A stretch of DNA of 64,000 nucleotides. It comes from an uncultured virus (IMG/VR IMGVR_UViG_3300025154_000055). Its lineage: Duplodnaviria; Heunggongvirae; Uroviricota; Caudoviricetes. Below, piece after piece: positions 8,205 to 62,459 of this stretch. The notes below the pieces were generated by a model. That model ran no database searches. It was not told where the DNA came from and saw only the letters and a program-made list of their open reading frames with translations. The stretch lies in IMG/VR virus record IMGVR_UViG_3300025154_000055; one strand, 5' to 3'. Both the position numbers and the translations under genes were made by a program. Position 1 is the first letter of the stretch. Each line of letters opens with the position of its first letter.

Positions 8205-8231
8205 AATCTCTCTAAGGATAGGTTGACATAA
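8205..8231 (+). repeat. 27-bp junction motif copy
   Basis: AATCTCTCTA AGGATA GGTTGACATAA; between lysin stop and next ATG. Confidence 0.85.
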
Positions 8232-8232
8232 T

Positions 8233-8325
8233 ATGTGGAACTTGCTTATTGGTGCTGTTCTTGGTATACTTTCAGTAGTGGGCGCGTTCTTCCTGTGGGT
8301 TTGGAAGAAGTTGCAGGAAATGTAA
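8233..8325 (+). CDS. 30-aa single-TM peptide (MWNLLIGAVLGILSVVGAFFLWVWKKLQEM)
   Basis: Below the ORF-track cutoff; hydrophobic helix plus basic tail; starts right after a 27-bp motif copy. Confidence 0.45.
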   Translation: MWNLLIGAVLGILSVVGAFFLWVWKKLQEM

Positions 8326-8441
8326 CGTGTTATTTGTCGCGTTTGTTGCGGGGGTTGTAGTTGGAATTGCCGCGGGCATACTGGCGTGCGTACTGTACGC
8401 TATATCTCAGATTAAGAATCTAAAACTCTAAGGAGCAGAAA

Positions 8442-8645
8442 ATGACTAAGGATCAGTGGGTGATGGTATTAACGTTCGTGGCGTCGTTGATTTCTTTGGC
8501 AGCATCGACTTTGGCGCTTCCTCCGACCGTAACGCCGTATTTGGTGTTTGCGGTGGGTGTTATCAATTTGGCTCTGGCGGTGTTCTTTGGCGTGAATAAG
8601 CCGGTTGCCGCTTCGTTCAAGGCGGGTGCTGAATCTGTGAAATAA
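8442..8645 (+). CDS. two-TM holin-like protein
   Basis: AAGGAG RBS; two TM helices; downstream of lysin. Confidence 0.6.
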   Translation: MTKDQWVMVLTFVASLISLAASTLALPPTVTPYLVFAVGVINLALAVFFGVNKPVAASFKAGAESVK

Positions 8646-8794
8646 CCCATGAGGGACTACGCGAGAAGTCTAAACAACAGAAAGCGTAGAGACAAGCAAT
8701 TCCAGAAAGCGCACCAAGGGCGGAAAATTCTCTCTGGTCGCAAGAACCGAGTGTCTAAAGGATAATACCGATAGGCACTTTTGGAGTTAGAGAA

Positions 8795-9229
8795 GTGCAT
8801 TTACAAGAAGACGGATGGTCTTGTGGAGCTATATCTTTATCCAACGCATTGCACCTTATGGGCTTGGATATTTCTGTTGACGACGCGAAACGAATTGCGC
8901 GCACCAACCGAAAGATGGGCACGACTCGTTCTGGACTCATTCGCGGGATTAACAATTCTGGGTTCAGGGCAACTCCCTATCATACTCGAAATCCAGATAA
9001 CGCATGGAAGTGGCTAAGGCGACATACGCCAGATTCGGCTATCATCGCCCTTGTCGATAACCAAGAGCACTGGGTAGTATTCTCTAAGGCGATTGCAGAT
9101 AAAATCATCCTGATTGATGGTTCTCCGAATGACGGCGATAATGGCGTGTCTGTGGTAGATAAACAAAGTGCCTTGAGTCGAATGAGCTACTCAGGGCACT
9201 TCTATGCGATTAGGGTGTCTAAGTTTTAA
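8795..9229 (+). CDS. C39-like cysteine peptidase
   Basis: Q-x5-CG (QEDGWSCG), HWVV and LID catalytic pattern. Confidence 0.7.
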   Translation: MHLQEDGWSCGAISLSNALHLMGLDISVDDAKRIARTNRKMGTTRSGLIRGINNSGFRATPYHTRNPDNAWKWLRRHTPDSAIIALVDNQEHWVVFSKAIADKIILIDGSPNDGDNGVSVVDKQSALSRMSYSGHFYAIRVSKF

Positions 9230-9483
9230 GAGGTTTTTACCTTTACATCTTTACCCGTTGAATTTGCCGCAACATACGCTTTTCTCGCTTCTTGGCATAC
9301 CTTGAGTAAAAATTTCAATTCCGTCTCTGTGAGATACAAATCGTCTTCTGGAGAGTCAATCTTGGCAAATACCACTGGTTTCCCCAAGTCTCCAGACGCA
9401 TTCACAACACCGTACAACTCGCCACTTTCATCTCCGAATCGGTAAACCACTTCATCCAACCATGCGTTCATTTTCATTTTCCT

Positions 9484-10275: not shown

Positions 10276-10331
10276 GATAGTCCTTAATAAAAGGCGAGGT
10301 AAGATTTCTCCTGCCCCGCCCGTGCCTAATC

Positions 10332-11672
10332 CTACCCCAACTTCACCAATTCCGCGAGTTGCTTAGTGTTGTCTGCCGTGATAACGCCCGTCTTGACGAA
10401 GTTCAACGCGCTGACGATCTTCTCTTTCTGAGTGGCGTCCAAGTCGTCAAACTTCGCTACCACGAAGGACGCGAACGCTACTTTGTCCAAGTCTACCCCG
10501 AACGTCTCGATAGCACCATCACCGCTGGTGGTAGCGGTCGCCGTAACAGAGTCCTCAATTACGGCAGACTTCGCGGGTTCCGCTGGCGGTTCTGGCAACG
10601 GAAGTTGTGCAGGTTTCTCAGCGTACCACCGTTGATCGTCGCCCTCCCCACGGCAATGTGTAATCAACGCCTTCGCCTTCTCCCACGACATATCTTGCAG
10701 ACGATCTAACTTAAAGTGGGTGCGTAGATGATTCTTGAGATGTGCTGGAGCGGAGATGACTTTATCTTTCCCGACAAACCGATCCATGATATTATTGATG
10801 GTCGGAATGTCAATCAAATCCTTTGATGGTTTTGATTTCCCTCCGAACCACTCAATCATCTCGATCTTCGCTTCTGGATCAGACGTAAGAGTATCAGTTC
10901 CGGTCTCCAGCGATCCATCGGGCGTTTCTACCGTCTTTGGTGGCTCAGGGCTATTTTCTACTTTAGGAGATTCAGGAACACCCGACTTCAACCAATCCCG
11001 CAACGGCTCAAAAAACTTAACATCGGGCTTGGTGCAAACCAAGTCTGCCATAAAGTCACAGCGCGATTTGCTGACGACAATATTGTGATCCACGTCCATG
11101 TCGGCAACGATAGTGAACTCGTACTCTGTGCCCGCACGCTGAACGGGAGCGAGTCCAATCTTCTTGACATACGCCTTGCCGTTGGAGTCTTTGCCCTGTT
11201 CGTACTCCATCTTGCTCCGCATCGTGGCGATAACGTGGCACTTGCTTTGAAGCATAGTATCCACTAGCTTGCGGTGAATAGGAGTCACATCGCGCCATGC
11301 CGTATAACTGTTCTCAACGCGCTGGCGCTTAGTCGCCTGTTCGTGAAGTTCCAGCACGCCGCCTTCGCCCTCCCACGCATGAGATAGGCTATCAATGACG
11401 ATAACGGAGTATCCCAAAGATTCGGCCAAGTTGATTGCCTCGATGTACAGGCGAGGGTCGAACTTATTCAACTCTACCACGTCGAAGTCGAACTTGTCAG
11501 AGTACAAACTTGCCGATCCGCGCTCTGTGTCGATAACGGCAATCTTCCCACCGTCTGCCAGCACATTAGCGGCGATCAGGGCGGTATACGTCTTACCCGC
11601 TCCCGCTGGCCCGTCAATAGCGATACGCGCCTTGATCTGATGCTTTGTCGCCTTAACAAATTGTAGTGCCAT
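10332..11672 (-). CDS. AAA-family ATPase (Sak4/AAA_24-like recombination protein)
   Basis: Walker A GPAGAGKT, IAVIDTE, VIVIDSLSHAW, G.EYEFT signature. Confidence 0.85.
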   Translation of the reverse strand: MALQFVKATKHQIKARIAIDGPAGAGKTYTALIAANVLADGGKIAVIDTERGSASLYSDKFDFDVVELNKFDPRLYIEAINLAESLGYSVIVIDSLSHAWEGEGGVLELHEQATKRQRVENSYTAWRDVTPIHRKLVDTMLQSKCHVIATMRSKMEYEQGKDSNGKAYVKKIGLAPVQRAGTEYEFTIVADMDVDHNIVVSKSRCDFMADLVCTKPDVKFFEPLRDWLKSGVPESPKVENSPEPPKTVETPDGSLETGTDTLTSDPEAKIEMIEWFGGKSKPSKDLIDIPTINNIMDRFVGKDKVISAPAHLKNHLRTHFKLDRLQDMSWEKAKALITHCRGEGDDQRWYAEKPAQLPLPEPPAEPAKSAVIEDSVTATATTSGDGAIETFGVDLDKVAFASFVVAKFDDLDATQKEKIVSALNFVKTGVITADNTKQLAELVKLG

Positions 11673-11694
11673 GTTCTCCATATCTCCTTTGATA

Positions 11695-12330
11695 TTAGTC
11701 CTGAACCCGTTCAATCATCACGGGTGTCAATCCCCGATCCAGATACGCTTCGATTTCTGCGTCCGTCTCGTTGCCGTCACAGATTACCTCGACCCTATCT
11801 GGACGGAAGGCGCGAAAGATACCCGGTTTGAATTGTGGCTCTTCGCCGTCCTCAACAGGTACAGCAATGCAATCTTTGTGCGCCAACCACAACCAATCAG
11901 TTCCAATCTTGAATCCCCTCGGAATGTGGTCGTGTGGAATACGGCGACTGATTCCTAAGTGGTTCGCTTCGTCATCAAACTCTTTGGGAGATTCGTAGTG
12001 CCGTCCACCAATCCAGAGTAATCCAACATGATCCATCTTGGATAGGCGACTCATTGTGCAAGTAGGGCAGAGTCCGCCATCGGGGTTATTACCGCAACGA
12101 ATCTCATTCCAGTCAAACAGTCGTGACGGGTCAATCCATGTAAATCCGCGAGATGGCTTAATTCCGCATTTCAGTCCCAATGCGGCACAAGCTGGACAGG
12201 GCTTTAATTCCAACGGCAATACCCCACAAGAAATGCCGGGGCCATCGAATCGGAAGTAAAGCGCACCTTTTGTCTGTCGCCATCCACAACCGCGCTTATG
12301 GTCTTGAACAATTTGGATACTTGGGTGCAT
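11695..12330 (-). CDS. Cys-rich phage hypothetical protein
   Basis: KRGCGWR and CPAC/CPTC motifs; AAGGAG RBS. Confidence 0.7.
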   Translation of the reverse strand: MHPSIQIVQDHKRGCGWRQTKGALYFRFDGPGISCGVLPLELKPCPACAALGLKCGIKPSRGFTWIDPSRLFDWNEIRCGNNPDGGLCPTCTMSRLSKMDHVGLLWIGGRHYESPKEFDDEANHLGISRRIPHDHIPRGFKIGTDWLWLAHKDCIAVPVEDGEEPQFKPGIFRAFRPDRVEVICDGNETDAEIEAYLDRGLTPVMIERVQD

Positions 12331-12406
12331 TGTTCTCCTTTGCGACGTTCCTTAGTCTTTCGTTCATTATACCGCACCGAGGGACACTAAAACAATAGCA
12401 CCTTAG

Positions 12407-12433
12407 TACCTATCTGACGATAGGTTTACATAA
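12407..12433 (+). repeat. 27-bp junction motif copy
   Basis: TACCTATCTG ACGATA GGTTTACATAA; 2 bp from helicase stop. Confidence 0.8.
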
Positions 12434-12435
12434 TG

Positions 12436-14656: not shown

Positions 14657-14907
14657 TTACCGCCTCAAGAGTAACAGAAATACCGTCGTAAATCTTAATC
14701 CAAACTTCCGTCTGGCCGTAGATTCTAACAACAACCTCTTCGTTATTCTCGTCGGTGTCTTCAACAACGACACCGTGCAATCCATCCCAATCTACCTTGT
14801 CTCCCGCCTTAAATGCCGTGTATGCCATCGGCGTTCTCCTTAATGACTTCTCTGTTATACGATCATCTTACCATGAGTCGCCACGAGTGTATATGGCACA
14901 TTGGTAC

Positions 14908-14934
14908 TAGGTCTCACGCGGGAAGTTGACATAA
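14908..14934 (+). repeat. 27-bp junction motif copy (degenerate left box)
   Basis: TAGGTCTCAC GCGGGA AGTTGACATAA; near HNH stop. Confidence 0.65.
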
Positions 14935-14950
14935 CTATACCTTGATAGAT

Positions 14951-15532
14951 TTAGTTCTCTGGCGATTGCCGATTATGCAAAGACGAGAATTTATCTTTAT
15001 GTAGGGCGTAATGTTCTGTTATCGCTTCAACCCATGCTATAAATTCTTCGTATTTCATTTTGCTTTTTGCTCCGTTACAAACCTTACAGCATGGGACAAC
15101 ATTTTCGACAGAATAGTCCCCATTGCTGTCTATTCTATCTAATCCACTGTATATATAGTCTATGTTGCCGGACGCGCCCTTTTTAGCCGCTTTATATACG
15201 TTCTTTGGCGGCGAACCACAATAGAAACAATCTCGCTGGGTTAAATTTAGAAAGTCGTCTTCAGATATTTTTAGTTCGTGATTTCTGTTTTTTGCATTTT
15301 GATTGTATTGATTATATAGTTGCTTAAACGCGGCGTAATATTTTGGTTTTCCGTGTATGCACCCGCAACTATGTATTGACCCGTTTCGGAGATTGCATCC
15401 GTCTGCAATTCTGATATTTCCACAATCACATCTATAGTACCATCTTACATTCCCGCCTCCGTCATCTGGCGCAACTCCAATAACAACCAATTTCCCATAC
15501 CTGTTTCCAATTTCGTCTTTTCGCCTTGTCAT
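14951..15532 (-). CDS. HNH endonuclease (homing type)
   Basis: IGNRYGKLVV...CDCG N-terminus; CFYCG...GLDRIDSNGDYSVENVVPCCKVCN; AT-rich; own TTGACT-16-TATACT promoter at 15550-15577. Confidence 0.85.
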   Translation of the reverse strand: MTRRKDEIGNRYGKLVVIGVAPDDGGGNVRWYYRCDCGNIRIADGCNLRNGSIHSCGCIHGKPKYYAAFKQLYNQYNQNAKNRNHELKISEDDFLNLTQRDCFYCGSPPKNVYKAAKKGASGNIDYIYSGLDRIDSNGDYSVENVVPCCKVCNGAKSKMKYEEFIAWVEAITEHYALHKDKFSSLHNRQSPEN

Positions 15533-15578
15533 GGTATACTCCAATAAAGAGTATACCACCCATTATCAGTAAGTCAAT

Positions 15579-16547
15579 CTATTTACCATACAAGAGGTTT
15601 ATCGCCTTGATACTCACTCTGGCGTTACCGATTCGACTCTCGGCCATCGGGCGAATGACAACCCCCTCGCGCTGTTTTCCGTTCGGGTACAATCCCTCGG
15701 CATAGCGACGGATTGCCTCGTCACTGGTGAAGTCGAACGTCTTATCCCAGTCCACAATGTCTACCATCGGGATACCGTATTTCTGGCAGAGGTCTCGGAC
15801 GGTCTGTCCGTTTAGGTATTCATGCGCCGCAATGTCGTACAGATTGAACACACGGCAGTCAACCCCTTTAATGCCCATTGGGTTGCCCTGAATACCCTCG
15901 CCAATCGTTTCAAACTGGATAGCGACACCATCTGGCAATACTTCCGCCAACTTGTATCGCTTCGCCAGTTGCCAGATAGCGTTGTTGTAAGTCTCTTTCA
16001 GTTCCAAGTTCCGAGAACAGCATCCGAAGTGACCATCCAACTTGTAGACGGTCGCGCTACTTCCATCTGCTTTAACGGTGATGTAAACCTGCTTGCCCCG
16101 CAACCATTCAACCATTTCAGGAACGCTCTGAAAGTTGGGTTCGTCTGTCTTGGGCATCAGGTGGGTCGGGAAGTTTCCGTACACCTGTCCGGCGAGATTG
16201 GCGGGCAGAGGTTTTTCGTACTTCTTGACGCCACGGACTTCCGAAATGTCATCGCCCACTTCACCTGTAACGGTCAACGGCAGAATCAAAACCTCACTCG
16301 GAACTCCACCGAACCGTGCCATACGGACGATATACTTCCGAGACTGCATAAAGTCGAATTCTGGCGTGGCGGGGAGTAGCGCGTCTTGCAGAAATATCTC
16401 GCACAAACTTCCGACTTGGAACTCGTCAATCTTTACCACGCCTTGCCACTTCCCGGCATTGCCTACTACGACCGTAGCGGCAACAATCTTATCGCGCCCA
16501 TCAATGGGGCGAATGTCTGTAATCTTTCCAATGTGTGCTAGTCCCAT
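15579..16547 (-). CDS. ATP-dependent RNA ligase (Rnl2/DRB0094-like)
   Basis: KTDE, motif I KADGSS, CSRN, IQFE.IG.GIQGN, REGVV, C-terminal K.I. Confidence 0.85.
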   Translation of the reverse strand: MGLAHIGKITDIRPIDGRDKIVAATVVVGNAGKWQGVVKIDEFQVGSLCEIFLQDALLPATPEFDFMQSRKYIVRMARFGGVPSEVLILPLTVTGEVGDDISEVRGVKKYEKPLPANLAGQVYGNFPTHLMPKTDEPNFQSVPEMVEWLRGKQVYITVKADGSSATVYKLDGHFGCCSRNLELKETYNNAIWQLAKRYKLAEVLPDGVAIQFETIGEGIQGNPMGIKGVDCRVFNLYDIAAHEYLNGQTVRDLCQKYGIPMVDIVDWDKTFDFTSDEAIRRYAEGLYPNGKQREGVVIRPMAESRIGNARVSIKAINLLYGK

Positions 16548-16552
16548 ACATC

Positions 16553-19500
16553 CTACGTATCAAAGAACCATTTTTCAGATTCTTTCCACATGATATAACG
16601 AGAGACAGCGCCATTTTTCTTTGTGGACAAAGCGTATCCATGATCGGCACAAAATGAAACTACACCGCCAATAGATGATCCGACTCCACCAAAACAATCC
16701 TCGAACTGAGCAATATCCCCCTCGAATACATCGCCACCGTCAACGATGATTGTCACTTGTTCTATGTCTTCCATAGTTCTCCTTAAAAAGGTGGTTTCGA
16801 GTAATCATCTTTATAGAGTATCGGCAGTTCCCATTTCTGCAAGGGAATCACGTCAATCCACCCGTCAATGGTAATTGTCACGGGATGCAGAAAGGTATTA
16901 GACGAGTAATTGGCAGACGACTCATACGCCCCGTAAAGCATCCACAATCCATCAATACGCATCCAAGTGTTGCACAGGTAACTTCGCCCACTGTGCGAGA
17001 TGACCCTGTATTTCAGGTAGTGCGCGTCGTGCTTGTCGGGGTCTGTATCAGTAGAGATATGGTCGCGGTCTTCATCGTCAGTCATTGTGTCCCCTTACGG
17101 TTTGTTTATCAGCACTACGGGGTAGTATCCCCGCTCAATCCAATAGTACAACCGCTCTCCGTCTTCTGGAGTCAATGTAACGGTTGCGTCAAACAGAGAT
17201 TGCTCTGGGAATATCTCGCTATCGTCCCCCTCCGAGTCGTCTACTCTCGTTAGGTTACTGTCTACCCAACGCTCCACCACAAGGCGAACGGGGATTTTCA
17301 CAAGTTGAAAAGTCATTTCATCACCCCCGTTTACAGAGTATAGCAGAACATTCCTTGAATGGGTATAGTTATTGTGTACTAGGCGACTTGACTTCGTTCG
17401 CAACCATGACGAAGTAATTGTAGAACGCCATCAGGTGTATCTCAAAGAGTGAGCGTTCTAGGTGTTTCTTCTTCCTAGCGGAAGTGAGTTTTTCGGAAAC
17501 CGTCTTCTCGTCATAGTCGCCCGTCTGGTTGAGAAAGGCGACCACATCTTTGAGGATTTCCGGGTTAATTGCCTTCATTTCGACACCTTCTGACCGTACT
17601 TTTGGCGAGCTTTGGCGAGTGCTTTAATCATGGGTTCGGGGTCTACGTCTGTACACCAAAATTTGTAGGGCGAATCTTGCCCGATACCGTAATCGCAAGG
17701 ATGACCCAAGACCTTGAACAGGGGACATTCCTCACAGGCGGCGAATCGTGACTCTTCGGAAGAACCGTCGTCGTCTTTCATGTACTTGACACATAGGGCA
17801 CACGATACGCTATCAACGTAAAAGTTGTCAAATACATCGGCCCAAATCTCGTCATACGTTTTCGTCAATCCGTACCTGTCTAGGACCTTCTCTCGCAACC
17901 CGCGCCACTTCCTCAGCGAATGCCCAATCGGGTCTTGACGCGCCTCTTTGCTGTTCGCGGGTGTCGGGTAATACTTCGCCAGCCAGTCTTTGAGTGTCAG
18001 TTCTGCCTTCATGATGACTCCTATCCAAGACTCTGCCGAGTAAAGCAGAGAAGCTAATACTGAATCGTGTGTCCTGTTATTCCTACAAGAGTGCAATGTC
18101 AGACTCTTGAATTATCCTTCAGTGTTGTCAACGGCACAAGTATACAGCGCGACATAACGAGTTTCCTGACTTTTGCCTGACATTATGCTGACGTTTGAAG
18201 CATGGCGACCACTGCGCGCTCTATCCTGTCTAGTTTCTTGTCCATGTCGTATAGAATCGCCACTTGGACGTTGACCATGCTTGCAATCGCTAATTCGTAC
18301 TGTTTCGCCTTAATCGCGTCATTGAAGTTGCGAACCGAGTCTTGGACAATGCTAGAAAGTTCTTCGTTCATTGTGTCTCCTTATCCAATTCCGTACTGTC
18401 CCGCCTCTTCTTGAGCCAGTTCCAGGTCGTTCGTAGACCCACTGGCTATAGCGTCCTCATCTTCATGTCCCTCTTCAAATACGCGCCACAGGAACACGGT
18501 GATACGCGATGTAATGAGTTTTGGCGTGATGGTGGTAGTCATATTCTCTTAACCTCACAGTCAACCGTGATGCAAATCGCTGTTTCCATTCCGTCGTATA
18601 TACATGGGTCTCCTACAACCATATGACCATCTTCTGTTCCCGTTTTATGATATTCAAACATGGTGATAGATTTCTCGAAGTCTTCTCTATCAAAATGACT
18701 GCCAGAATATCCTTTTGCGTCAGAGAACTTGGAATCGCACATAACTCTAACGCGGTGTTTTGGGAAGAAGTTGTGCGCGTTTTTTGCAATCCACTCCACT
18801 TGAGTAGAATAGTCTCCAGACAAACATTTTGGCAGAGGGGTTTTGTACCCAAGAAACGCTCGAATAACTGATGTGGCACTTGCAACGCACTTGTCGTCTC
18901 CCTTAACTAAAACGCCCATTTGATACTCCTTAATGACTGAACTGTACTTATTCTACCAGAACGTAACACCCGTTCCAAGTGTCGAATAAGTACAGTCTGG
19001 CATGACTTCCCCGTGTACCTCTATAGCCGGAACTTCACATAACTAAATGCTTGCTCTAATGGGAAGTGCCACTGCTCTGTATCCTTATCGTGCGCCTCTA
19101 CCCAAATCCCGTCAGGTCGCACAATCACATCGCCCTGTAGTCCACTGTAAATCGTGAAGTCGCGTCCTGTAAATACATTCACTACCAGACTCCTTTTAAC
19201 GCCTCTAAGATACTCAGAATGAATTGTCCCTTTGCCGTCCAGCAATACCCTTGTTTAAGCTCATTCACCGTCTGGTGCAGATACGCCGCCTTAAAGTGCA
19301 GATTGAACGTATCACCTACGTATCCGTGCGCTTGTAAAAAGGCGGCGCGAACGGCACGATCCGCCATGAGTGGGTATCCGTGTAAGTCACCACCGGGCAT
19401 GAAGCGCGGCCCGTATTCTGAGATGGTGCGCTCCTGATCTACCGTGAACTCTAGGCAGGGAGGCGGGCTTCCGCTAGGCGGTGTCGTGGCGAACATGGAC

Positions 19501-21455: not shown

Positions 21456-21482
21456 GACCTCTATACCGATTACTTTACATAA
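21456..21482 (+). repeat. 27-bp junction motif copy
   Basis: GACCTCTATA CCGATT ACTTTACATAA; abuts stop at 21483. Confidence 0.85.
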
Positions 21483-22099: not shown

Positions 22100-23056
22100 T
22101 TAGTACCCTTCCTGTGGCGTGAGTTTGACTTCCCAATTCATGTGATTATACGCAGGCAGTGACAGTACACGCCCTGCCGTAGTGCGTTCAATCATTCCAA
22201 GATGCAGTAACCACGGCTCTACCACACTCTCAATAGTATCGCGCTCCTCATTCATCATGGAGGCAATCGCATCGACGCCACGCGGTCCACCATTAGCGCG
22301 TTCAAATAAGACGGTCAGATATTCGCGGTCTTGCTCAGTCAGTCCCTTACCGTCAATCTTGAGGGCGTTCAGCGCGTCACTGGCGACCTTACCCGTGATA
22401 GTCGTCTCCATCACCGATCCGTAGTCCACAACGCGCCGTAGCAGTTTTAGCGCCATTCTAGGAGTACCCCGCCCACGTCCGGCGACGACTTCAAGTGCCT
22501 CTGGCGTAATGTCGTACCCCATCTCGACCGACTCATTACCAAGAATCTTGGCGAGGTCTGGCGTCTTGTAGTACCGAATTTGGTACACATTTCCGAAACG
22601 CGCCCGCAAGGGGTCGGCAACCCGCGCCAACAAGGTCGTCGCGCCTACCACCGTGAAAGAGGGCAGGGGGATGCGATACGTAGCAGGAAACAGGTCGCCA
22701 AACGTCACGTCTACTACCTTGTCCTCCATAGCAAGGTATAGCGTCTCGCTCGGCTTTGCCCCTAGTCTGTGAATCTCGTCTATGAAAACAACGTCACCGT
22801 CTTTCGCTTGCATAAGCAATCCAAGTAAGTCCTGTACCGAACCAATTGCGGGGGCATTTGTCGCCAACATATTCACGCCCATCTCTTTTGCCACTAAGAG
22901 GGCTACGCTGCTTTTGCCAACACCCGGCGTGCCGTACAACAGAATGTGGTCAATCACGCCCTTGCGCTTCTTGGCGGCGTCGATGGTCACGCGCAAGTTG
23001 CTTACAAGGTCGGGTTGACCGATGAAGTTATCCAGAGAAGTCGGGCGATTAGTCAT
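22100..23056 (-). CDS. ruvB: Holliday junction branch migration helicase RuvB
   Basis: RP..LD.FIGQ, DHILLYGTPGVGKS, FIDEIHRL, LY.AMED, GATT, RGTPR, T.E.V.EP.L...G...RT..GR. Confidence 0.93.
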   Translation of the reverse strand: MTNRPTSLDNFIGQPDLVSNLRVTIDAAKKRKGVIDHILLYGTPGVGKSSVALLVAKEMGVNMLATNAPAIGSVQDLLGLLMQAKDGDVVFIDEIHRLGAKPSETLYLAMEDKVVDVTFGDLFPATYRIPLPSFTVVGATTLLARVADPLRARFGNVYQIRYYKTPDLAKILGNESVEMGYDITPEALEVVAGRGRGTPRMALKLLRRVVDYGSVMETTITGKVASDALNALKIDGKGLTEQDREYLTVLFERANGGPRGVDAIASMMNEERDTIESVVEPWLLHLGMIERTTAGRVLSLPAYNHMNWEVKLTPQEGY

Positions 23057-24005
23057 TATTCCTCAATATCCAAAAACTTAACCAGACCCGCCAGTAATGT
23101 ATTGACGTGTCCTAAGTCCCCGATATGATCCCACCCGACTTGTGCCAAGTCCACGTCATGCCCCTTCTTGGCGAATCCGTCAAGCATCTTTAGCAGTCGG
23201 CGAGTATCAATCAGGCGCGCGGCGTAGGTTTGAATTGCCTGAGTTTTGCCGTACTGCGCGAGATTAGATAAATTCTTGTCGGTAATCATGTCAGGTATCC
23301 TTTTGAGAGTTGTTCCTGTGTCATCTTGGTGTTGACTTTGTGCCAACCGGGACTAATCTTGCGAATCGCCTTAAAGTCACCGTCTAGTCTCCACATCCCC
23401 CAAACCCACCCAACAGGCGCAATAACTCTGTTAAACTTAACCATGCCATCAGGAGACACCCATGCGTAGTGGTAAACACGCTCGTGTAACTTCTGGCGAT
23501 AGAGTGTCCACATTATAACCACCACCGTTCCTGTGCCTCTTTTAGCATGGCGTCAACTGCATCGCGCAAGTCGTAATCGTAGCAGGGCAGTACGCCTTTA
23601 TCCTCAATAGCGGATACCGCGAACCATTCCCCATCAAAGGTGATTTTGATACCCAAAGTCGCCAACTTCTCTAATTGTGCCAACATGCTACGCCTCCCAC
23701 TTTGACGTGCTTCCCGTGAAATAGTATCCGTCACCACCGCCAGCGGGATACTCCGCCTTTGTGTAATATCGGTAATAGTCCCAATAGTAATCTCCAACAC
23801 TATTGCGCTTGTGGACTGCGACAAGTCCCGCGAACGTCTGCCTGTAGGACTTGACGCCCTTCGCTTTGAGAAGTTCTGGAATGGTTGCGTAGTGTACTTG
23901 TGCCATGTTGTATCTCCTTTGTCACTGTATATCCAATTTTACATCAGGAGGGAGTCACTGGGTAGTAACGAATGTCACTCGATGTGTAGATGGATGTCAC
24001 TAGAG

Positions 24006-24039: not shown

Positions 24040-24558
24040 TTATCTCGATTTCACGAAAATCATTCCACGATCCGCTAAGGCGTGATGCGTAGGGCAAAGA
24101 ACCGAGAGATTCGATATGGCGTTGCTGTTGTCTATCTTCCGCCCTAATATATGATGAATCTCTAGCACGTCGTCTCTTCCGCATCCCGGTATGGCGCACT
24201 TGTAGTTGTACGTCTCGTACACTTTTCTGTATGCGTCACTAAGCGGGAAAATACTACCAGATACATCTATAGATGGATTTACCTCTCCGTTTTTTGTGAA
24301 TATAAATCCGCTCCCCATGTCCATTTCGTCTGGAGTAGCAGACTTAAAATAGTACATCACTGTTGTATGATCTCTTTTGAGAAATCTTGAGATTTCAGAT
24401 ATGGACGATCCGTACTTCTTACACGCTATTGCAAAAACAACTCTTGCCGAAACTGGTCTCTTATCTCTCGACAAAGACAAAACCCAATCTCGGCTAACGT
24501 CCATTTTTGAACAGACAAACTCCATCGCTTCTTCCATCGTGTTATTCATGTTATCCAC
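24040..24558 (-). CDS. DnaA domain-IV-like HTH fused to HNH nuclease
   Basis: AR......K..G.S..EI.R...RDHTTVMY signature, then KCAIPGCG...LEIHHI......N...NL..LCP.HH. Confidence 0.75.
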   Translation of the reverse strand: MDNMNNTMEEAMEFVCSKMDVSRDWVLSLSRDKRPVSARVVFAIACKKYGSSISEISRFLKRDHTTVMYYFKSATPDEMDMGSGFIFTKNGEVNPSIDVSGSIFPLSDAYRKVYETYNYKCAIPGCGRDDVLEIHHILGRKIDNSNAISNLSVLCPTHHALADRGMIFVKSR

Positions 24559-26147: not shown

Positions 26148-26174
26148 AACCTCTCTAGCGGCAGGTTTACATAA
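26148..26174 (+). repeat. 27-bp junction motif copy
   Basis: AACCTCTCTA GCGGCA GGTTTACATAA; 2 bp from stop at 26177. Confidence 0.85.
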
Positions 26175-30693: not shown

Positions 30694-30720
30694 CACCTCT
30701 CTAGCGATAACTTAACATAA
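30694..30720 (+). repeat. 27-bp junction motif copy
   Basis: CACCTCTCTA GCGATA ACTTAACATAA; abuts stop at 30721. Confidence 0.85.
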
Positions 30721-32180: not shown

Positions 32181-32207
32181 GACCTCTCTATGGGTAGGTT
32201 GGCATAA
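32181..32207 (+). repeat. 27-bp junction motif copy
   Basis: GACCTCTCTA TGGGTA GGTTGGCATAA; near stop at 32214. Confidence 0.8.
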
Positions 32208-37210: not shown

Positions 37211-37237
37211 TTATGTTAAGTTTCCGCTAGAGAACAT
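37211..37237 (-). repeat. 27-bp junction motif copy
   Basis: ATGTTCTCTA GCGGAA ACTTAACATAA; supplies the MTase TAA stop. Confidence 0.8.
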
Positions 37238-43420: not shown

Positions 43421-43447
43421 TTATGTAAAGTAATCTTTAGAGAGGTT
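43421..43447 (-). repeat. 27-bp junction motif copy
   Basis: AACCTCTCTA AAGATT ACTTTACATAA; at the strand switch. Confidence 0.85.
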
Positions 43448-48560: not shown

Positions 48561-48711
48561 GTGTAGGTCTTGGTGTAGCAATGGGAGACGTTATAGTGGG
48601 TGTTGCCACAGGCGATGAGAGGGTTGGTGTAACCGTTGGCGTAACTGTTGGAGTGGGTGGATTACACCCGACTAGGAACACGGTAAGTAGTACAGCAAGT
48701 AATTTCTTCAT
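48556..48711 (-). CDS. 51-aa Pro/Thr-rich lipoprotein
   Basis: MKKLLAVLLTVFLVG-C lipobox followed by PT repeats; TAATG overlap with RNR stop. Confidence 0.7.
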   Translation of the reverse strand: MKKLLAVLLTVFLVGCNPPTPTVTPTVTPTLSSPVATPTITSPIATPRPTP

Positions 48712-51482
48712 TAGGACACCTCGCAGAATGAATATTCACAAGAATCACAGTGCGTACAACCACCCTCTTTGACGAGATTCCCACCGCACTCTGGACACCT
48801 CTTATCTTTGTTGATCTTCTTCGGGGACAGAACTTCTTGATTACGGCTTCCATTCCGATATACAGTCATACCCTTAACGCTACCCAAGTCATACGCCATC
48901 ATAAAAGCGCTTGCCACATCCTCTTTAGTGGCAGAGTTCGGGAAGTTAATCGTCTTGGACACCCCTGAGTTGACGTGATTCTGGACGACATTCTGCATCT
49001 GGACGTGCTCTTGCCACGTCACCTCAACCCCGCCGTTCCCCGTCACTGCACATCGGAAGTGTGGTTGGTGCGCCATCGGGTGATAAATCTTGTACGTCCC
49101 CGTCTTATCCTCACGCATGGTGAATTCTGAGAAGATGGGTTCAATTCCATTAGAACACCCAGCAATGAGCGAAATAGTACCCGTGGGCGCTATGGACGTG
49201 GTGGTGATGTTCCTACGCGGAACAGGAAGAGATAGACACGCCTCTGGAATACCCATCTCTCGCCCCATCTCTTCCGATTCCCTATCTGCCACATCTGAGA
49301 TGAACTTCATAACATCGCCAATAATAGACAAGGACTCTTCGCTTCCGTATGCAACGCCCATAGATAGTAATAGATCAGCCGCGCCCATCACACCCAGCCC
49401 GGTCGGACGATTGGACTTAACCCACTCGGCAATGTCTCTAGTCGGGAAGGTTCCAGCGTCAATTACAGCGTCCAAGAATCGGGCGGCGACCCTTACTGCT
49501 ATCTCCAATTTATTCCAGTCGATAATGCCAAACTCAACAAACTTCGATAAGTCTAAGCTGCCTAAGTTGCACACGCCGTTCTTCGGTAATGGCTGCTCTC
49601 CGCACCCTCTTTGTACATATCCGTCTGTAATCCAAGTGTCGGAACCATCGCAATATAAGTCATATACAGTTGTTAGTCCATATTCCTCTATGGATTTAAT
49701 TCTCGCTTTCCAAGTATTACCAGTTGTCATCCAGTATTTTCTAAGATCGACTAGCGTCTTGCCTTTCTCTGGGTTGATTTCTTCGATCCTAGTATGCTCT
49801 ATATAGTTAGAAATGCTGTCGCCGCTGATTCCAATGGTCATCTTTGCGTGATTTCTGACTATCTCCCTGTTGCCAAGCATATGAGACGACATATCGGTCG
49901 AGGTAGATATTCTTCCATGACACCCAATCATTAACAGGAGTCTTCTAATGTTTTGAGCGAGTTCCGGGCTTGTCGTATCCCATCTAATCTGAGGATGGTT
50001 CGACCTTAAATTTATATTCCCGTCAGTTGCCAATAGACCGTCTAAGATTCCGATTGCCTCTCTTATTGTTACGACCCTTTTGATGTCAAACGACTTATTG
50101 TAACTGTACCCAGTCTCCAGTCCAAGTTCACAGAGTAGTGTCTCTGGACTCCCGACGTACATAGACATGCTCTTAGATTTTTTATCCTTCCAGTCTAAGT
50201 TTGTGATACCAAATAAATTGTGAACATTTGAATTGTAGTCCACGTCGTCTTGATTGGACGCAATACTAATAACGCCACTATCGCCATTTATGTGCGTATA
50301 GCATCCGTCTCCTAATAGTATTCCAGACTTCAGTCCCCGAACATAGTCGTCGTCTGACCCCAAATTGGATAATGACGAGCGTCCCACTCTAACGTAATCC
50401 CCAACGGACAATTCATCCAGTCTATAGTCGGACAACCTCTTAGAGCTACTGCCGGATTTAATTGCATAATATCTGTGTGCAGATGTGACGTACTGGAACC
50501 CACCGTCGCTAAATGACACCTTAAACACTGGAATATCTTCGTGAGACTCAACCGATTTCACTTTCTCTGTGCCGAACACAGTTGATATATTATCCCCTAC
50601 CTTAATGTTCTCTACGGGGATGTATCCCGATGGAGTGTTTACTAGAGTTCCTGCCGAGACACACGGATTCGTCGCCTCAATCTTTTGTCCACTATATGTA
50701 TAAGGACTATCGTTCATTCTATCCAAGAAAATAATTCCAGGCTCACCATTGCTCCACGCACCATCAACAATCATGTCGAATAGTTCTCTCGCTCGAATTT
50801 CCGAATATCTCACACCCTTAAACTCAGTCCAGTAAGTGCCGTCAGACTTAACAAGTTCCATGAACTCAGCGTCCACCGCGACCGAGATATTGGTCGTGTG
50901 CATCCGACCTTCTTCTATCTTCGCCTTGATGAATTTGATAATATCGGGATGCTTGTAGTACATGACGCCCATCATAGCCATTTCACGGAATCCTGCTTGG
51001 GTCATCGCCTTCATGTCGTTACAAATCGTCTCAAAGAATTTCACCGGCCCGCCAGCATAACCGTGAGTAGACCCTGACACGAAGTCGTTCTCTGGCCTGA
51101 GATTACTCAGAGTCGTCCCGCACCCCCCGCCTTTCTTGGCGATAAGAGCGAACTCCAACTTTGTCTTGTAAATTTCCTCAATGGAGTCCTCGAACCCCAC
51201 TACGAAGCACGCCGACAGTCCGCCATTCTTCTTCCCAGAATTGACAAGGCAGGGACTATTCGGGATAAAGTATCGGTGTAACATCATATCATAGATAACG
51301 GGTTTCCACCACGCATCCTCTTTACAGACCCAATTGGTAACGCGAGACACCACATCCGACCACTGTGATTCTCCTACGTGATAGTAGCGTTTCTGTAAAA
51401 TATTGAGGGCCATATCGTCCAACGGGCGTACAGCATCGAACACAACAGACGACAAGTCCACGGATTGTAATTCCTTTAACAT
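48711..51482 (-). CDS. nrdJ: class II (B12-dependent) ribonucleotide reductase with intein
   Basis: FIPNSP.L.N, LSACFV, GEPG..F, NP|C-GEQ, CNLGS, IAPTGTIS, VSKTIN, C-terminal Zn ribbon. Confidence 0.92.
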   Translation of the reverse strand: MLKELQSVDLSSVVFDAVRPLDDMALNILQKRYYHVGESQWSDVVSRVTNWVCKEDAWWKPVIYDMMLHRYFIPNSPCLVNSGKKNGGLSACFVVGFEDSIEEIYKTKLEFALIAKKGGGCGTTLSNLRPENDFVSGSTHGYAGGPVKFFETICNDMKAMTQAGFREMAMMGVMYYKHPDIIKFIKAKIEEGRMHTTNISVAVDAEFMELVKSDGTYWTEFKGVRYSEIRARELFDMIVDGAWSNGEPGIIFLDRMNDSPYTYSGQKIEATNPCVSAGTLVNTPSGYIPVENIKVGDNISTVFGTEKVKSVESHEDIPVFKVSFSDGGFQYVTSAHRYYAIKSGSSSKRLSDYRLDELSVGDYVRVGRSSLSNLGSDDDYVRGLKSGILLGDGCYTHINGDSGVISIASNQDDVDYNSNVHNLFGITNLDWKDKKSKSMSMYVGSPETLLCELGLETGYSYNKSFDIKRVVTIREAIGILDGLLATDGNINLRSNHPQIRWDTTSPELAQNIRRLLLMIGCHGRISTSTDMSSHMLGNREIVRNHAKMTIGISGDSISNYIEHTRIEEINPEKGKTLVDLRKYWMTTGNTWKARIKSIEEYGLTTVYDLYCDGSDTWITDGYVQRGCGEQPLPKNGVCNLGSLDLSKFVEFGIIDWNKLEIAVRVAARFLDAVIDAGTFPTRDIAEWVKSNRPTGLGVMGAADLLLSMGVAYGSEESLSIIGDVMKFISDVADRESEEMGREMGIPEACLSLPVPRRNITTTSIAPTGTISLIAGCSNGIEPIFSEFTMREDKTGTYKIYHPMAHQPHFRCAVTGNGGVEVTWQEHVQMQNVVQNHVNSGVSKTINFPNSATKEDVASAFMMAYDLGSVKGMTVYRNGSRNQEVLSPKKINKDKRCPECGGNLVKEGGCTHCDSCEYSFCEVS
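49605..50663 (-). mobile_element. LAGLIDADG intein (353 aa) at the RNR active-site NPC
   Basis: Begins CVSAGTLV; block B TSAH; GILLGDG and DGLLATDG; block F VYDL; ends WITDGYVQRG before CGEQPL. Confidence 0.9.
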
Positions 51483-52949: not shown

Positions 52950-53663
52950 GGTTTTCCTTTTGAGAGAATGGGCGTTGCCCGCCGTCCGCCCGCGCTTGCA
53001 GTTCTTCTCGTGTTATACTCGCGCATCAATAGAGGATATAGTCGCAGGTAGGCGCGACTTGATACATGCTAGAATGCCACTCTTCGGAATGCGCTCATAA
53101 TCTTTTCAGCAACCTCCTCTTGAATAGACGGGTGAAGAGAGTACAGAACGGGTTCAATATCCTTGAATAGTTCTCGTGCTACTACTGCGAAGTTCCCGCT
53201 ATTCTCGCCTTCCATTTCCATGTAAAACTCTTGGAACATCTCGTCAATCTTTGGCATTTTTACCTCCAGACGTGGGGTTCAGACAACTCGTACTTCGCCC
53301 TATTCCTCGCATACACCAACCCACCCCGATCCACTCTCAGGCGTCCCACGGTCGTGTCAAACGAGAGTCCGTCCTGAAACACACCCTCATGGAGTCCACA
53401 CTGAATGTCCAGAGCACTCAGTACCGCGCCTGCACTAAACACGTCAGCGGGGTCATGGATAACCGTGAACCGTTTTGCGCCATTGTTGCCACGTCCGCTA
53501 GGGGATCGACCTTTAAAGACTCGCTTGTGACCGTAGTTGGTAGTTGCCTTATTCATGGATACAGAATACCACAATCAGTCGATAGATTATATGGTACTAT
53601 CGTCCCGAATAAAAAGAACCGTGCCTCTATTGTCAATAACTCTGATAACACCGTACTCTTTAC

Positions 53664-53690
53664 TTATGTCAAGTTGCGCGTCGAGAGATT
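53664..53690 (-). repeat. 27-bp junction motif copy (inside ORF 53587-53817)
   Basis: AATCTCTCGA CGCGCA ACTTGACATAA. Confidence 0.75.
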
Positions 53691-53827
53691 TCGCGGCGTC
53701 TATGACGTACCCACGCGCCATTATTTCTGGGTTCTCTTTACCCGTTCTCAGGACTCCAATTAGAAGTCGTGCCAGTTTCTTCGCTATCATGTCCCGCTGT
53801 GTCGTTGTCAGTTCCATCGCTATATTC

Positions 53828-57872: not shown

Positions 57873-57943
57873 ATTATGACGTGCTAGATACGCTATGAGT
57901 TCTTCTTTTGAAGTCAAAGCGTAATAAATACGGGAGAATTTAC

Positions 57944-58390: not shown

Positions 58391-58402
58391 AGGACGGACG
58401 TG

Positions 58403-59069
58403 ATGGCAGTAATAATCGAAATTAGACAGGCAGAAGGTGGAGACGACTCAAAGATGCTCGTGAACGACCAATGCTCGCTGTACTGTAAGGCGGCATTGCG
58501 GAGGTCGCTTTGAGGTGGATATATTAGAGCAACGGTCTGGATACACTGTTATGCGCGTGTCTGGTGACGGCGAGAATATCTTCTTGAATGAGTTTGGCGG
58601 TCATAGATGGCAGAGAGTACCACCTAACGAGGCGCACGGCAGAGTTCATACTAGCACCGTTACCGTTGCTACATTCAGGGAACCCTCAGAGTCCGAACTA
58701 TCCATTAAAGAAAGTGACTTGCAGTGGAAGATGACTCGCGGGAGCGGGCCGGGTGGACAGAACAGGAACAAAGTGGAGACGGAAGTCGTTGTGACTCATG
58801 TTCCAACGCAAACGACCGTTAGATGCGGAACAGAGCGTTCTCAATTTAGGAACAGACAACTTGCGCTAGGTCTATTGCGTGCCAGAATCTTTTCGACAGA
58901 ACAGACTAAAGCGACTTCTGAAATTAACGCAAACAGGAAACAACAGGTCGGTTCTGGAATGCGTGGGGATAAGCGAAGAACGATACGGATGAAGGACGGA
59001 ATTGTGACTGACCATGTTTTAGAGAGAAAGATGCCACTACAGAGATACCTTAGCGGAGAGATGTTTTAG
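58403..59069 (+). CDS. RF1-like peptide chain release factor expressed by a +1 programmed frameshift at 58508-58513
   Basis: ORF1 MAVIIEIRQAEGGDDSK... ends GGAGGTCG-CTT-TGA; +1 frame has HRWQRVPPNE..GRVHTS, GPGGQ, ERSQ..N. Confidence 0.88.
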
Positions 59070-59606: not shown

Positions 59607-59633
59607 AATCTCTCTAAGGATAGGTTGACATAA
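59607..59633 (+). repeat. 27-bp junction motif copy, identical to 8205-8231
   Basis: AATCTCTCTA AGGATA GGTTGACATAA; TAA stop overlaps the next ATG. Confidence 0.85.
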
Positions 59634-60355
59634 TGACGCACGCAGTCGCCTACACGCCCATGTCGTTTTTCGGGAATCATGTCACGAACATGAGTATTTC
59701 CGTAAATAACGCCTATCCGAGTTTCGTGAACTGGGGTGGGGACTTTCACGTCAATCCCATCGGACAATTTGAATACACCATTGACGTATCGTTCATTGTA
59801 GACCGAGAGACGAACGTCTTCGACTCCTTCATGGGTGGAATATTCACCATCTCCAGGATAGGGGATAGTCACATCTGCAAGTATTGTGGAGCGATGGTGA
59901 AGGCGGGGTGCATCTCTTGTCATCGGTGTGCTGGGGATCAGACGCAAGTCGTTAAGGATAGTCGGTATCACAAACTCATTCGAGCAATGGCGTCTGACTT
60001 GAGGATGAACTGGCGGGAAGATAGGACACCCGAAGTGTTCCTACAGATGAAACTCATTGGGGGATTCCACTATGATGAGGGCATGGCGCGTAACCCGTCC
60101 TCTCTCTTTAATGGGTGGTCTACCACTCACGAGACAGATGGATGGATATGCAAGTATTGCAACAGCGTTATTAAGGGAGAAACACTGGACTGCCCGAACT
60201 GTGGCAGTGGGCGTGTCCCCTTTACGGACTTAAAGAAGATGCGAATGAGATGCCTGTACTGTGGAAAACCCGTTAATGGAAACACGGTCTGTAGCGGATG
60301 TGGGGCAACAGACAACGGGTACTCCATGTGGCAACCACGGCTGGACTGGAATTAG
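59633..60355 (+). CDS. multiple zinc-ribbon protein
   Basis: Six CxxC motifs. Confidence 0.65.
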   Translation: MTHAVAYTPMSFFGNHVTNMSISVNNAYPSFVNWGGDFHVNPIGQFEYTIDVSFIVDRETNVFDSFMGGIFTISRIGDSHICKYCGAMVKAGCISCHRCAGDQTQVVKDSRYHKLIRAMASDLRMNWREDRTPEVFLQMKLIGGFHYDEGMARNPSSLFNGWSTTHETDGWICKYCNSVIKGETLDCPNCGSGRVPFTDLKKMRMRCLYCGKPVNGNTVCSGCGATDNGYSMWQPRLDWN

Positions 60356-60748
60356 GAGGAGGGATGAAAACATACACCGTGTCTGAAATCATAGAACAAC
60401 TCCAAAAGATGCCACAAGACGCTATTGTGGTTTACCAAGTTCCATATGAGTCTCATATCTATGGTATTGATTTAGTAGGAGAGAAATCAGTGGTAAAACT
60501 TGTCGAGACGCATTATATATATAGCGGCGACTGCTATGAGGAAGACAAAAATGGCAATATTACTGGAGTGAGACTATTATGAAGCGCATAGCAGTATGGG
60601 TTGGAAACGGGGCCATCGGCGTTGCAGCAGACGAGGATTTAGAAGTTGCATTTATTGATAGGGACGGCGAACGCATTGAGGTCGTCACTGCCAATTCGGA
60701 TTTGCTGAATAAGCGATTTAATGAGTGTTCCCAAGAACCGGAGGACGT

Positions 60749-61135
60749 ATGACTAACGAAGAGGTAGACGCACTAGAGTCAGGGCGAGAACTGGACGCGC
60801 TTATTCATGATGTAGTCATGGCGGGATGGACTACACACTTAACTCCAGAGGAGACTATAATTGCCATAGAGCATGACATGATTCCCTATTACAGCACCAA
60901 TATCTCAGACGCATGGCGCGTGGTGGAGGTGTTCAGGCGGGGATGGAGCAATCATGCCGCTGCCACTATAAACCTTGCAGTAACCGAGGACGACATTGAC
61001 GGAGAAGATTGCTACTGCGATATGGGGTCTCCTGATTTGCGCGACCATCACGGAACAGGGAAACAGATGCCAGAGGCGATCTGCAAGTGCGCCTTAAAGA
61101 TAGCGAACCATGTCCAGAACATTCCGCCGCAATAA
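60749..61135 (+). CDS. phage ABA-sandwich-domain-like protein
   Basis: GRELDALI...PYYSTNISDAWRVVE...AICKCAL. Confidence 0.6.
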   Translation: MTNEEVDALESGRELDALIHDVVMAGWTTHLTPEETIIAIEHDMIPYYSTNISDAWRVVEVFRRGWSNHAAATINLAVTEDDIDGEDCYCDMGSPDLRDHHGTGKQMPEAICKCALKIANHVQNIPPQ

Positions 61136-61504
61136 GAGAACTAACCGAAAGACCGAGCGAGATAACTGGTATCGCAAGGGTGCTCACGGGGCATGGAGTT
61201 GTGGGAACCATCACGGATGCGAGTGGTGCAAGAGTAACAGACTACACAGCGCGGCACTGAGGAAACTGGCGGCACAGAGACAGATGGAGGAAATGTCGGA
61301 ATGAGAACAATATCCATTCACCTAAGCGATAGTCCGTATACTAAAGATTGCCGGGGCGACTTACTCGTTTCAAAGAGTAACGAACCACAAAGACACAGCG
61401 GATTCTTTCTATCACAAGAGGACGCCGATGGACTTATAGAAGCGGTAGAGGGATATATTGATTCGCACAAACTGAACCTGTATAGAACGAAACTGGAGCA
61501 ATGA

Positions 61505-62038
61505 ATGTCTAATTGGGTGATTGGGGTTGATCCAAGCTCAAGCATTAAATCTGCAAGCAATGCTATCGGATGGGTTATTTTCAAGGATGGAGAACTAGAA
61601 TCCTTTGGGGAATTAGCACCAGACCCGCTAGAAGGGTTCTATCGCGTTCGCCAATGGCTAAAAAACAGATTCAAAATGATTTCCGTGAGAGACGCGAAAC
61701 CAGAAGTGACCGTAGCGGTTGAGAGCGTTTTTCTGGGACAAAATCCGAATGTGTTCTATAACTTAACGAGAGTAAAGGCGTTTATAGAAGTCATCACTCT
61801 TGAGAACGCTCACTCCTACAGAGAAGTTTCCGCCCTACAGTCATTTCAGGCAATCACTGGTCTAAAACAATATCCGCTCAAGAATCCAGACGACCCGAAG
61901 AGCGGACGAGCAAAAACGCGGAAGCCCGCTATTCAAAGCGCCGTCAAAGAGAAATACCCCGAATTATCTGATGAGGGAGAGCATATTAGCGATGCGTGCG
62001 CCATTGCGGTGTCTATTATTAAAGGGAATCGTCCATGA
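61505..62038 (+). CDS. RuvC-like Holliday junction resolvase
   Basis: VIGVDPS, VAVESVF, K..IQ..V, SDA.AIA acidic catalytic pattern. Confidence 0.75.
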   Translation: MSNWVIGVDPSSSIKSASNAIGWVIFKDGELESFGELAPDPLEGFYRVRQWLKNRFKMISVRDAKPEVTVAVESVFLGQNPNVFYNLTRVKAFIEVITLENAHSYREVSALQSFQAITGLKQYPLKNPDDPKSGRAKTRKPAIQSAVKEKYPELSDEGEHISDACAIAVSIIKGNRP

Positions 62039-62432
62039 TTGAACAACGCACCGATTGTGTAGACTGCCTATTACACCTCGCGTCCAACTTCTATGTCATT
62101 AAAGAAGCGTGTGCCAGTGTTGGGATAGAGCACGGTCTGTCTACTGACGAGGAACTGGCTATATACGTGTCCTGGTATCACGCGAACGGACACCAATCTG
62201 GTATGAAAAAGACCCTACCGTAATGATAGGGTCTTACCACGTTCTCCAGTTTACCTCGCCCTCAACTCCCAGTTGTCCACGATACGGATTGCCCACCACG
62301 CGCCCCTGTTTCCACGCCCTGCGCCGTGCTTTAGAGAGACGACGCTTCCAGTATCGCCCCGTACCCACTCCGGGCCACACTTCTGAGAAGGACGGGACGT
62401 GACCGTGACGAAAACGAATGGTGTCGGACATG

Positions 62433-62459
62433 AACCTCCCGTGCGGTTACTTTACATAA
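62433..62459 (+). repeat. 27-bp junction motif copy
   Basis: AACCTCCCGT GCGGTT ACTTTACATAA; abuts HNH stop at 62460. Confidence 0.8.

Follow-up and report, generated by a model that had tools for sequence, protein, structure and literature searches.

The DNA analysed here is a 64-kb stretch (64,000 nucleotides, IMG/VR record IMGVR_UViG_3300025154_000055; hereafter the window) that is part of a large phage detected in groundwater sequencing runs. One protein of the window is also carried by a contig of 121 kb, and therefore at least half of the phage genome lies outside the 64 kb analysed. The window contains tail genes and genes for Sak4, a DnaB-like helicase, RNA ligase, RuvB, RuvC, several methyltransferases and HNH proteins, as well as tRNAs and a ribonucleotide reductase gene bearing intein domains. 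Dispersed among these genes are 14 copies of a 27-bp site that is laid out as a box (AAYCTCTC), a 6-bp spacer and an arm (RSTTNACATAA). A first-pass annotation had reported the same 14 full copies at the same coordinates and on the same strands, and had interpreted them as sites of a gene-cassette recombination system. The sites and associated features are listed here in window coordinates; L-numbers denote loci or contigs compared with the window, and G-numbers denote bacterial genomes.

8205..8231, +, full site; identical over 28 bp to the site at 59607
12407..12433, +, full site 3′ of the stop codon of the DnaB-like helicase gene, with a promoter-like block 11 bp away; retained in a relative (L069)
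14908..14934, +, full site after an HNH gene; the relative lacks both the site and the block 14843-16777
19016..19042, +, full site that overlaps the end of a gene; its counterpart in a relative (L058) has decayed in place
21456..21482, +, full site; retained in a relative (L058/L055)
23286..23312, −, decayed site where two genes overlap by ATGA, scoring 11.5 bits (16.9 in a relative)
26148..26174, +, full site; a relative's contig retains just 26139-26177, with the flanks replaced on both sides
30694..30720, +, full site with an identical copy in L044; on the box side, a break lies 7 bp outside it
32181..32207, +, full site; decayed in place in L083
35232..36995, no strand, mostly non-coding stretch toward which 12 of the 14 sites point; contigs at about twice the flanking depth
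36441..36451, +, arm only; more likely a promoter −35 element (TTGACA-17-TACACT, promoter-like); absent from the relative
37211..37237, −, full site supplying the stop codon of a methyltransferase gene; retained in L046/L083
37921..37947, −, full site supplying the start codon of the methyltransferase gene that the 37211 site ends; retained in L046/L083
43421..43447, −, full site at a divergent junction; retained though the flanks on both sides diverge
53664..53690, −, full site within the open reading frame (ORF) 53587-53817, where the match to the relative breaks off precisely at the ACATAA edge
59607..59633, +, full site; the relative carries additional genes to either side of it and lacks a second site
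62433..62459, +, full site at the stop codon of an HNH gene

Architecture and placement of the 27-bp site

A position weight matrix built from the 14 copies scored each of them at 28-39 bits (19.8-37.1 bits when the scored copy was left out), compared with a maximum of 18.2 bits across 60 Markov shuffles. The next-best match in the window was the decayed copy at 23286. The arm pattern RSTTDACATAA occurs 14 times where 0.43 occurrences are expected, consistent with the first-pass estimate of fewer than one chance match, and none of 100 shuffles reached 14. Twelve of these matches lie in full sites and two are arm only, one at 407 within an ORF and one at 36441. The latter had also been listed as an arm-only copy; it is present on the plus strand, but is more likely a −35 element. 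For 12 of the 14 full sites, an annotated gene end is no more than 20 bp away (P 2e-7), and the site at 19016 overlaps the end of ORF 19021-19245, bringing the number at gene ends to the 13 claimed previously; both the matrix scan and the enrichment at ORF ends that the annotation had suggested thus bore it out. The ORF that contains the site at 53664 shows 78% conservation with a relative over its first 58 residues. Sites occur on average once per ~4.5 kb, and the gaps between them are more even than those between random gene junctions (coefficient of variation 0.56 vs 0.86, P 0.03).

To extend the set, a metagenome pattern scan yielded 44 loci, from which phages bearing sites were kept; the remainder were single background matches. 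Relative B is a close relative whose fragments match the window at ~70-95%. L049 is the structural block of another relative and is 81-97% like L073 and L084, whereas L052, L056 and L074 derive from a more distant phage. Leaving out duplicate contigs (L080, L055, the L046 repeats, L050, L057) and background matches, the set comprises 36 sites, 14 in the window and 22 in three related phages, of which 25 are non-orthologous. The site was absent from 30 of 30 loci with Sak4 relatives, and neither it nor a close relative was found among isolate phages. IMG/VR pattern scans gave only single matches (4 and 6), all on unrelated contigs, and single-protein scans with RuvB, helicase and capsid yielded nothing.

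The profile over the 36 sites has conserved patches at positions 2-8 (AYCTCTC), 13-20 and 22-27, with TT and CATAA nearly invariant. Within the spacer, conservation is partial, with G13 present in 32 of 36 sites. Beyond ACATAA, conservation fades within three bases, as had been noted from the window. Site orientation is free relative to transcription, and the sense and antisense placement described earlier recurs even within the all-plus-strand block L049, where four sites read + − + −. A promoter reading was rejected: behind TTNACA, a −10 box scored above 5 bits in only one of 36 sites, and the mean score equalled background. A hairpin reading was likewise rejected, as the sites share no common fold, the 25 non-orthologous sites show no pairing covariation, and no Rfam family matched at the sites; a weak pseudo-dyad about position 10.5 was not convincing. 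The position-specific conservation points to protein binding, and we take the site to be a protein-binding site on double-stranded DNA.

By its sequence, the arm is the XerD arm of dif. The arms at 53664, at 21456, 43421 and 62433, and at 30694 and 37211 are exact reverse complements of XerD arms in the Geobacter and Moorella dif rows of a published table (PMC3025954, supplement 2), and the variable position of the phage arm is the one that varies in published dif XerD arms. These matches strengthen the likeness pointed out in the first-pass annotation, as do the chromosomal data below. As that annotation had also stated, no XerC-like arm lies across the 6-bp core, and this holds at all 36 sites. 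The outer box does not belong to dif: one dif site (L087) carries it, but this was dismissed as chance, since the box occurs in only one of 11 dif sites of that order.

The phage sites share the XerD arm with dif, pdif/xrs and the attP of integrative mobile elements exploiting Xer (IMEX; PMC5357621, 10.1101/2022.12.17.520857), but differ in having neither an XerC arm nor a 6-8 bp core between two arms. Unlike pdif/xrs, pairs of phage sites are mostly direct rather than inverted and are not associated with module mobility, and unlike integron attC they form no single-strand hairpin with paired arms. Many asymmetric intergenic sites spread across a phage genome are also known as the stoperators of cluster A mycobacteriophages (PMC9283540) and the 21-nt repeats of T1-like phages (PMC11447400). 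This likeness underlies the main rival to the docking role proposed below, namely that the sites are stoperator-like operators of a phage-encoded regulator that reads all 27 bp and silences or insulates transcription units, the resemblance to an XerD arm being incidental or stemming from a −35 element. As in stoperators, the sites occupy short intergenic gaps and overlie start and stop codons. Their bipartite, asymmetric shape and the confinement of the full motif to the phage also fit, and promoter-like blocks, already noted beside several copies, adjoin about half of the sites. However, stoperators are 13 bp long, are oriented with transcription and no longer work when inverted, and the T1-like repeats also follow transcription, whereas the phage sites do not; neither published element has an XerD arm. 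In addition, no integrase or immunity repressor was seen in the 64-kb window of this genome of at least 121 kb, and such a regulator leaves unexplained why the arm is identical to a polar signal of host chromosomes. We view a whole-site regulator as possible but rather unlikely.

Gene turnover and selection at the sites

The cassette system proposed in the first-pass annotation, in which the sites are attachment sites or scars of an integron- or pdif-like system served by a Xer-like recombinase, was examined by comparing the window with B. Leaving out high-scoring segment pairs below 50 bp and net changes below 100 bp, we counted 24 gains, losses or replacements of at least 100 bp. None was bounded by two sites, and only 4 of 48 event ends fell within 15 bp of a site, even though the B contigs had been chosen for holding one. 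The expected mapping of breakpoints to the ACATAA edge was not borne out. One break, inside the ORF at 53664, lies exactly at this edge and is the only one that fits a cassette reading exactly; two others (26148, 59607) lie within 3 bp of it. The extra genes that the relative carries next to 53664 and on both sides of 59607 arrived without a second site. In B, the block that includes 14908 has been lost by crossover in a common ribosome-binding sequence 65 bp from the site. The site at 30694 is identical in B and moves together with its arm-side flank, which counts against crossover at the ACATAA edge.

Other sites decay where they stand. At the counterpart of 19016 in B, the promoter, gene and box are retained, eight spacer bases are missing and the arm carries three changes; the arm decays once the spacer bases are gone. 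The site at 32181 likewise decays in place. Its decayed counterpart (L083:1064-1109) is a perfect inverted repeat of 12 bp, the centre of which lies in the arm. One methyltransferase gene is exactly framed by two direct copies (37921 and 37211), as a cassette would be, yet it is kept in place in B. Essential genes are also framed by direct copies, and the sites of L049 separate structural genes that are syntenic in two distant phages (capsid 39-42% identical). These two phages, with their kept structural order, have no site and no PF00589 match.

No tyrosine recombinase turned up among the 99 proteins of the window or 69 from relatives, a search that covers 64 kb of the genome of at least 121 kb, and a six-frame scan with a tyrosine recombinase residue pattern gave no match. 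As for the rearranged junctions that the annotation had suggested looking for, none of the 15 joints listed (of 33) linked two sites, although contigs drop rare variants. A cassette system has in its favour the identity of the arm, the breaks at or near the edge and the framed methyltransferase gene. Against it stand the absence of events bounded by two sites, inserts lacking a second site, decay in place, the lack of an XerC arm, common core, hairpin or covariation, the lack of a recombinase in the window and in the relatives' contigs, and a host-type XerD that has often lost catalysis (see below). The sites behave as non-cassette elements. The cassette reading fails and is largely refuted, and we consider it very improbable; overall, the earlier interpretation was partly supported.

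The sites might instead serve mainly as boundary repeats that provide short homology for Sak4/Rad52-driven module exchange, similar to the T4-type promoter early stem-loop (PeSL) cassettes (PMC2839356), which are also dispersed repeats near gene turnover. Identical copies do occur at unrelated places (8205 = 59607 over 28 bp; 43421 = L051 = L058), the phages encode single-strand annealing proteins, and some sites have breaks near both edges. PeSLs, in contrast, hold a promoter and a stem-loop and mediate exchange, whereas the phage sites show no −10 box, hairpin or excess of breaks. The few event ends near sites, the conservation pattern expected of protein binding and the lack of site-to-site joints among the 15 listed of 33 make this explanation improbable. 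By the features tested, the site is not a dif, pdif, attC, PeSL or stoperator.

The sites are under selection. In nine orthologous site pairs, 8 of 135 consensus positions were substituted compared with 25 of 108 variable ones, a partly circular comparison. Moreover, sites persist while the flanks on both sides change, as at 43421 and at 26148, where the site and a few bases (26139-26177) are all that one relative's contig retains.

A polarised XerD arm on Chloroflexota chromosomes

Among the 14 taxon-named RuvB relatives, 12 were from Chloroflexota (identity 45-48%), and on this basis the host is likely to belong to that phylum. We counted arm copies from position lists, taking the ACATAA end as the pointing end. 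In 9 of 12 Chloroflexota chromosomes the copies converge, ACATAA end first, on one point. All copies do so in G263 (24/24), G274 (19/19), G037 (30/30) and G080 (23/23), and nearly all in G320 (17/19 relative to dnaA), G151 (42/45), G442 (43/44) and G434 (24/25); in G344 all 19 listed of 21 converge. A separate polarity test used slightly lower counts for G151 and G434. The convergence point is opposite dnaA in G263, G274 and G320 and roughly opposite in G344. In G037 and G151 dnaA is not opposite it, and the terminus position was inferred from symmetric 11-6-11 sites. A same-composition control that keeps TTNACA was unpolarised, with 2-7 copies in four genomes and 44, in mixed orientation, in a fifth. 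The arm is a replichore-polarised chromosome signal in many Chloroflexota. G049 is also among the genomes with the polarised arm (loci L216-L295 for ten genomes). Three genomes (G121, G290, G468) had no polarity and arm counts at or below control, a Myxococcota-type genome had a single arm copy, its dif, and no excess over control was seen in two draft Firmicutes genomes and two others.

The host signal resembles the FtsK orienting polar sequences (KOPS) and architecture imparting sequences (AIMS) in being a replichore-polarised motif that converges on the terminus (PMC3384302, PMC5993296). Those motifs are ~8 bp and read by FtsK, whereas the host motif is the 10-11 bp XerD arm present in 19-45 copies. 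Symmetric 11-6-11 sites lie at the polarity switch (L196, L210, L213; L276:7670; L306:2505; L314:1264). Those of G080 and G151 adjoin a single tyrosine recombinase gene, and these sites are candidates for a single-recombinase dif of Chloroflexota. G263, G274 and G320 contain several further ACATAA-N6-TTATGT palindromes (L196-L215), many near the switch point, with zero control matches.

The box is confined to the phage sites. It was absent from all 84 host half-sites read. Box plus arm occurred once in 3 of 151 Anaerolineae genomes, compared with four control matches (chance level), and as a single occurrence in each of seven places among all species genomes. Two chromosomal box-plus-arm loci of Chloroflexota (L085, L088) were discarded because they are single copies whose box is the Shine-Dalgarno sequence of ordinary genes. 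The phage carries 0.22 sites per kb compared with ~0.009 on chromosomes, a ~25-fold difference.

An XerD orthologue with an (L/M)TRQG helix was present in 9 of 9 polarised genomes and in none of the three unpolarised ones (P 0.005, uncorrected for kinship). In G037, G151 and G080 this XerD stops short of the catalytic tyrosine; the best solved structural match of the truncated proteins is E. coli XerD. The proteins of G263, G274 and G320 carry substitutions at three catalytic residues of the family, namely the first arginine, the lysine and the histidine. The XerD of G344 is intact. As judged from these residues, XerD is catalytically decayed in at least six of the nine polarised genomes. XerD orthologues with the recognition helix kept and catalytic residues lost were seen at L300-L303, L319 and L320. 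Across 91 Anaerolineae genomes, the arm was enriched in 32 of 85 with an XerD-like match and in none of six without (P 0.09). From this pattern XerD appears to be required without being sufficient, and the phage may have a host of the polarised kind or one of another kind.

A proposed docking role for the sites

We propose, with about even confidence, that the sites are non-recombining docking sites for host XerD and a second, probably phage-made protein. Each site would be a two-protein docking site on double-stranded phage DNA, with the 11-bp arm bound by a host XerD-type protein that in many Chloroflexota appears to mark both chromosome arms by terminus-pointing half-sites, often with loss of catalysis. 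The box, 6 bp outside the arm, would lie at the outer face of XerD, the face met by DNA motors, and would most likely be bound by the phage-made protein; no strand exchange would take place. With a site between genes every ~4.5 kb, the phage DNA would become coated with XerD and be treated as terminus DNA, on which host DNA-tracking motors, either SMC-type loop extruders or FtsK-type translocases, would be halted or unloaded. Alternatively, the benefit may come from drawing XerD off the host chromosome.

Two known activities of XerD are relevant. XerD alone binds well to a half-site, where its outer face acts as a block to FtsK and no cleavage is involved (PMC2800217). The phage sites resemble this roadblock in having a single XerD arm without XerC that would act by its outer face, and on host chromosomes the half-sites are turned so that a motor travelling from the origin toward the terminus meets that face. 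The published roadblock differs in being an in vitro result with an engineered half-site and no second box, rather than a dispersed system found in nature. At its dif-like XDS sites, the XerD of B. subtilis unloads SMC (Smc-ScpAB), and XDS arrays stop SMC movement (PMC11840125, PMC10945525, PMC11894783). Like the phage sites, XDS are dispersed dif-like XerD sites in multiple copies, with no XerC arm and no recombination. They differ in being chromosomal and located in the terminus, whereas the phage sites recur at intervals of 4.5 kb and include an additional box at a constant distance; furthermore, B. subtilis XDS act on SMC, while some polarised host genomes show no SMC. From their sequence, the phage sites are predicted to bind XerD and would work like XDS, yet they are not members of that group by location.

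A more specific version, which we put forward tentatively and think unlikely as a whole, is a cis-encoded counter-measure. The phage would copy the host's polar half-site at ~25 times its chromosomal density and add, at the outer face of XerD, a box for its own protein, so that catalytically dead host XerD strips or stalls translocases and SMC-type loop extruders, whether condensin or defence SMCs; XerD of many Chloroflexota would have changed from a recombinase to a replichore-wide polar roadblock.

Several findings weigh against docking by host XerD. The RuvB identity behind the host assignment is low, the taxon-named matches of a release-factor-like protein are Polyangia (2/2), the clamp of a relative is uninformative, and other proteins do not confirm Chloroflexota. 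The real host could be of an unpolarised kind that lacks XerD, given that three Chloroflexota genomes (one of them from Anaerolineae) and the Anaerolineaceae genome G001 have neither polarity nor the XerD helix. The association of arm and XerD over the 91 genomes has a P value of 0.09, 16 of the 85 genomes with an XerD-like match have no more than two arm copies, and the 12 complete genomes lack independence from one another. Searches for SMC found none in four of the nine polarised genomes, and those for FtsK-gamma none in two, so that a single motor does not account for the host pattern. Nothing on the host side corresponds to the box or to positions 13-17, relaxed Pfam searching of 30 proteins gave no DNA-binding candidate for the partner protein, and the phage sites are not fully polar, as in L049.

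Polarity within the window also bears on another explanation, that the sites are the phage's own polar replication or translocation signals (a fork trap or KOPS-like), ordered around a phage origin at about 54-59 kb and a terminus or end at about 33-37 kb. Two orientation switch points fit all 14 window sites (P 0.011), which converge on 33-37 kb by the polarity rule of the host chromosomes, and depth doubles at the convergence point. However, orientation alternates in the structural block of relatives (L049, L073) and the two arms would be very unequal. We think such signals improbable as a separate explanation, and they may be one aspect of docking. At 35232-36995, the doubling of depth comes from contigs identical to the window and is seen in two runs that are possible sources, which hints weakly at a direct terminal repeat.

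A literature search, with most subscription papers outside its reach, found no description of a phage-wide array of XerD half-sites, nor of polarised half-sites or decayed XerD in Chloroflexota. Non-recombining XerD sites have so far been described for one chromosome system, and a protein mimic, T7 gp5.9 (PMC7617805), is how a phage is known to interfere with SMC complexes. If the proposal is correct, a phage that recruits XerD via dozens of sites in its DNA would represent a new way of achieving SMC interference. A natural XerD that lacks the catalytic tyrosine but keeps the recognition helix, together with 19-45 terminus-pointing half-sites per chromosome, offers a direct test of non-recombination roles of XerD.

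Other features were observed in the window and its relatives. A pair of facing sites lies just upstream of a ferritin-like gene (L049:3739-4269) within the head-gene block. A TGTCA-type motif, probably an operator or early-promoter element, is repeated at 29120-29157, 29477-29514, ~21425 and ~36200, upstream of promoter-like sites in the leftward small-gene region. Atlas searches with two conserved unknown proteins assigned neither to a family. The phage encodes a release-factor-like protein (58515-59069), RuvB (22100-23056) and RuvC (61505-62038). In the Sak4 region (10332-11714), the relative (L069:286-1608) has a Rad52-like (Mgm101) N-terminal part, and the C-terminal half is common to both. 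The gene at 24040-24558 encodes a DnaA C-terminal helix-turn-helix fused to an HNH domain, and the ribonucleotide reductase (48711-51482) carries Hint and LAGLIDADG domains, likely an intein. Finally, a Twister-P5 ribozyme (35905-35984, −, 50.1 bits) lies just upstream of ORF 35589-35888.

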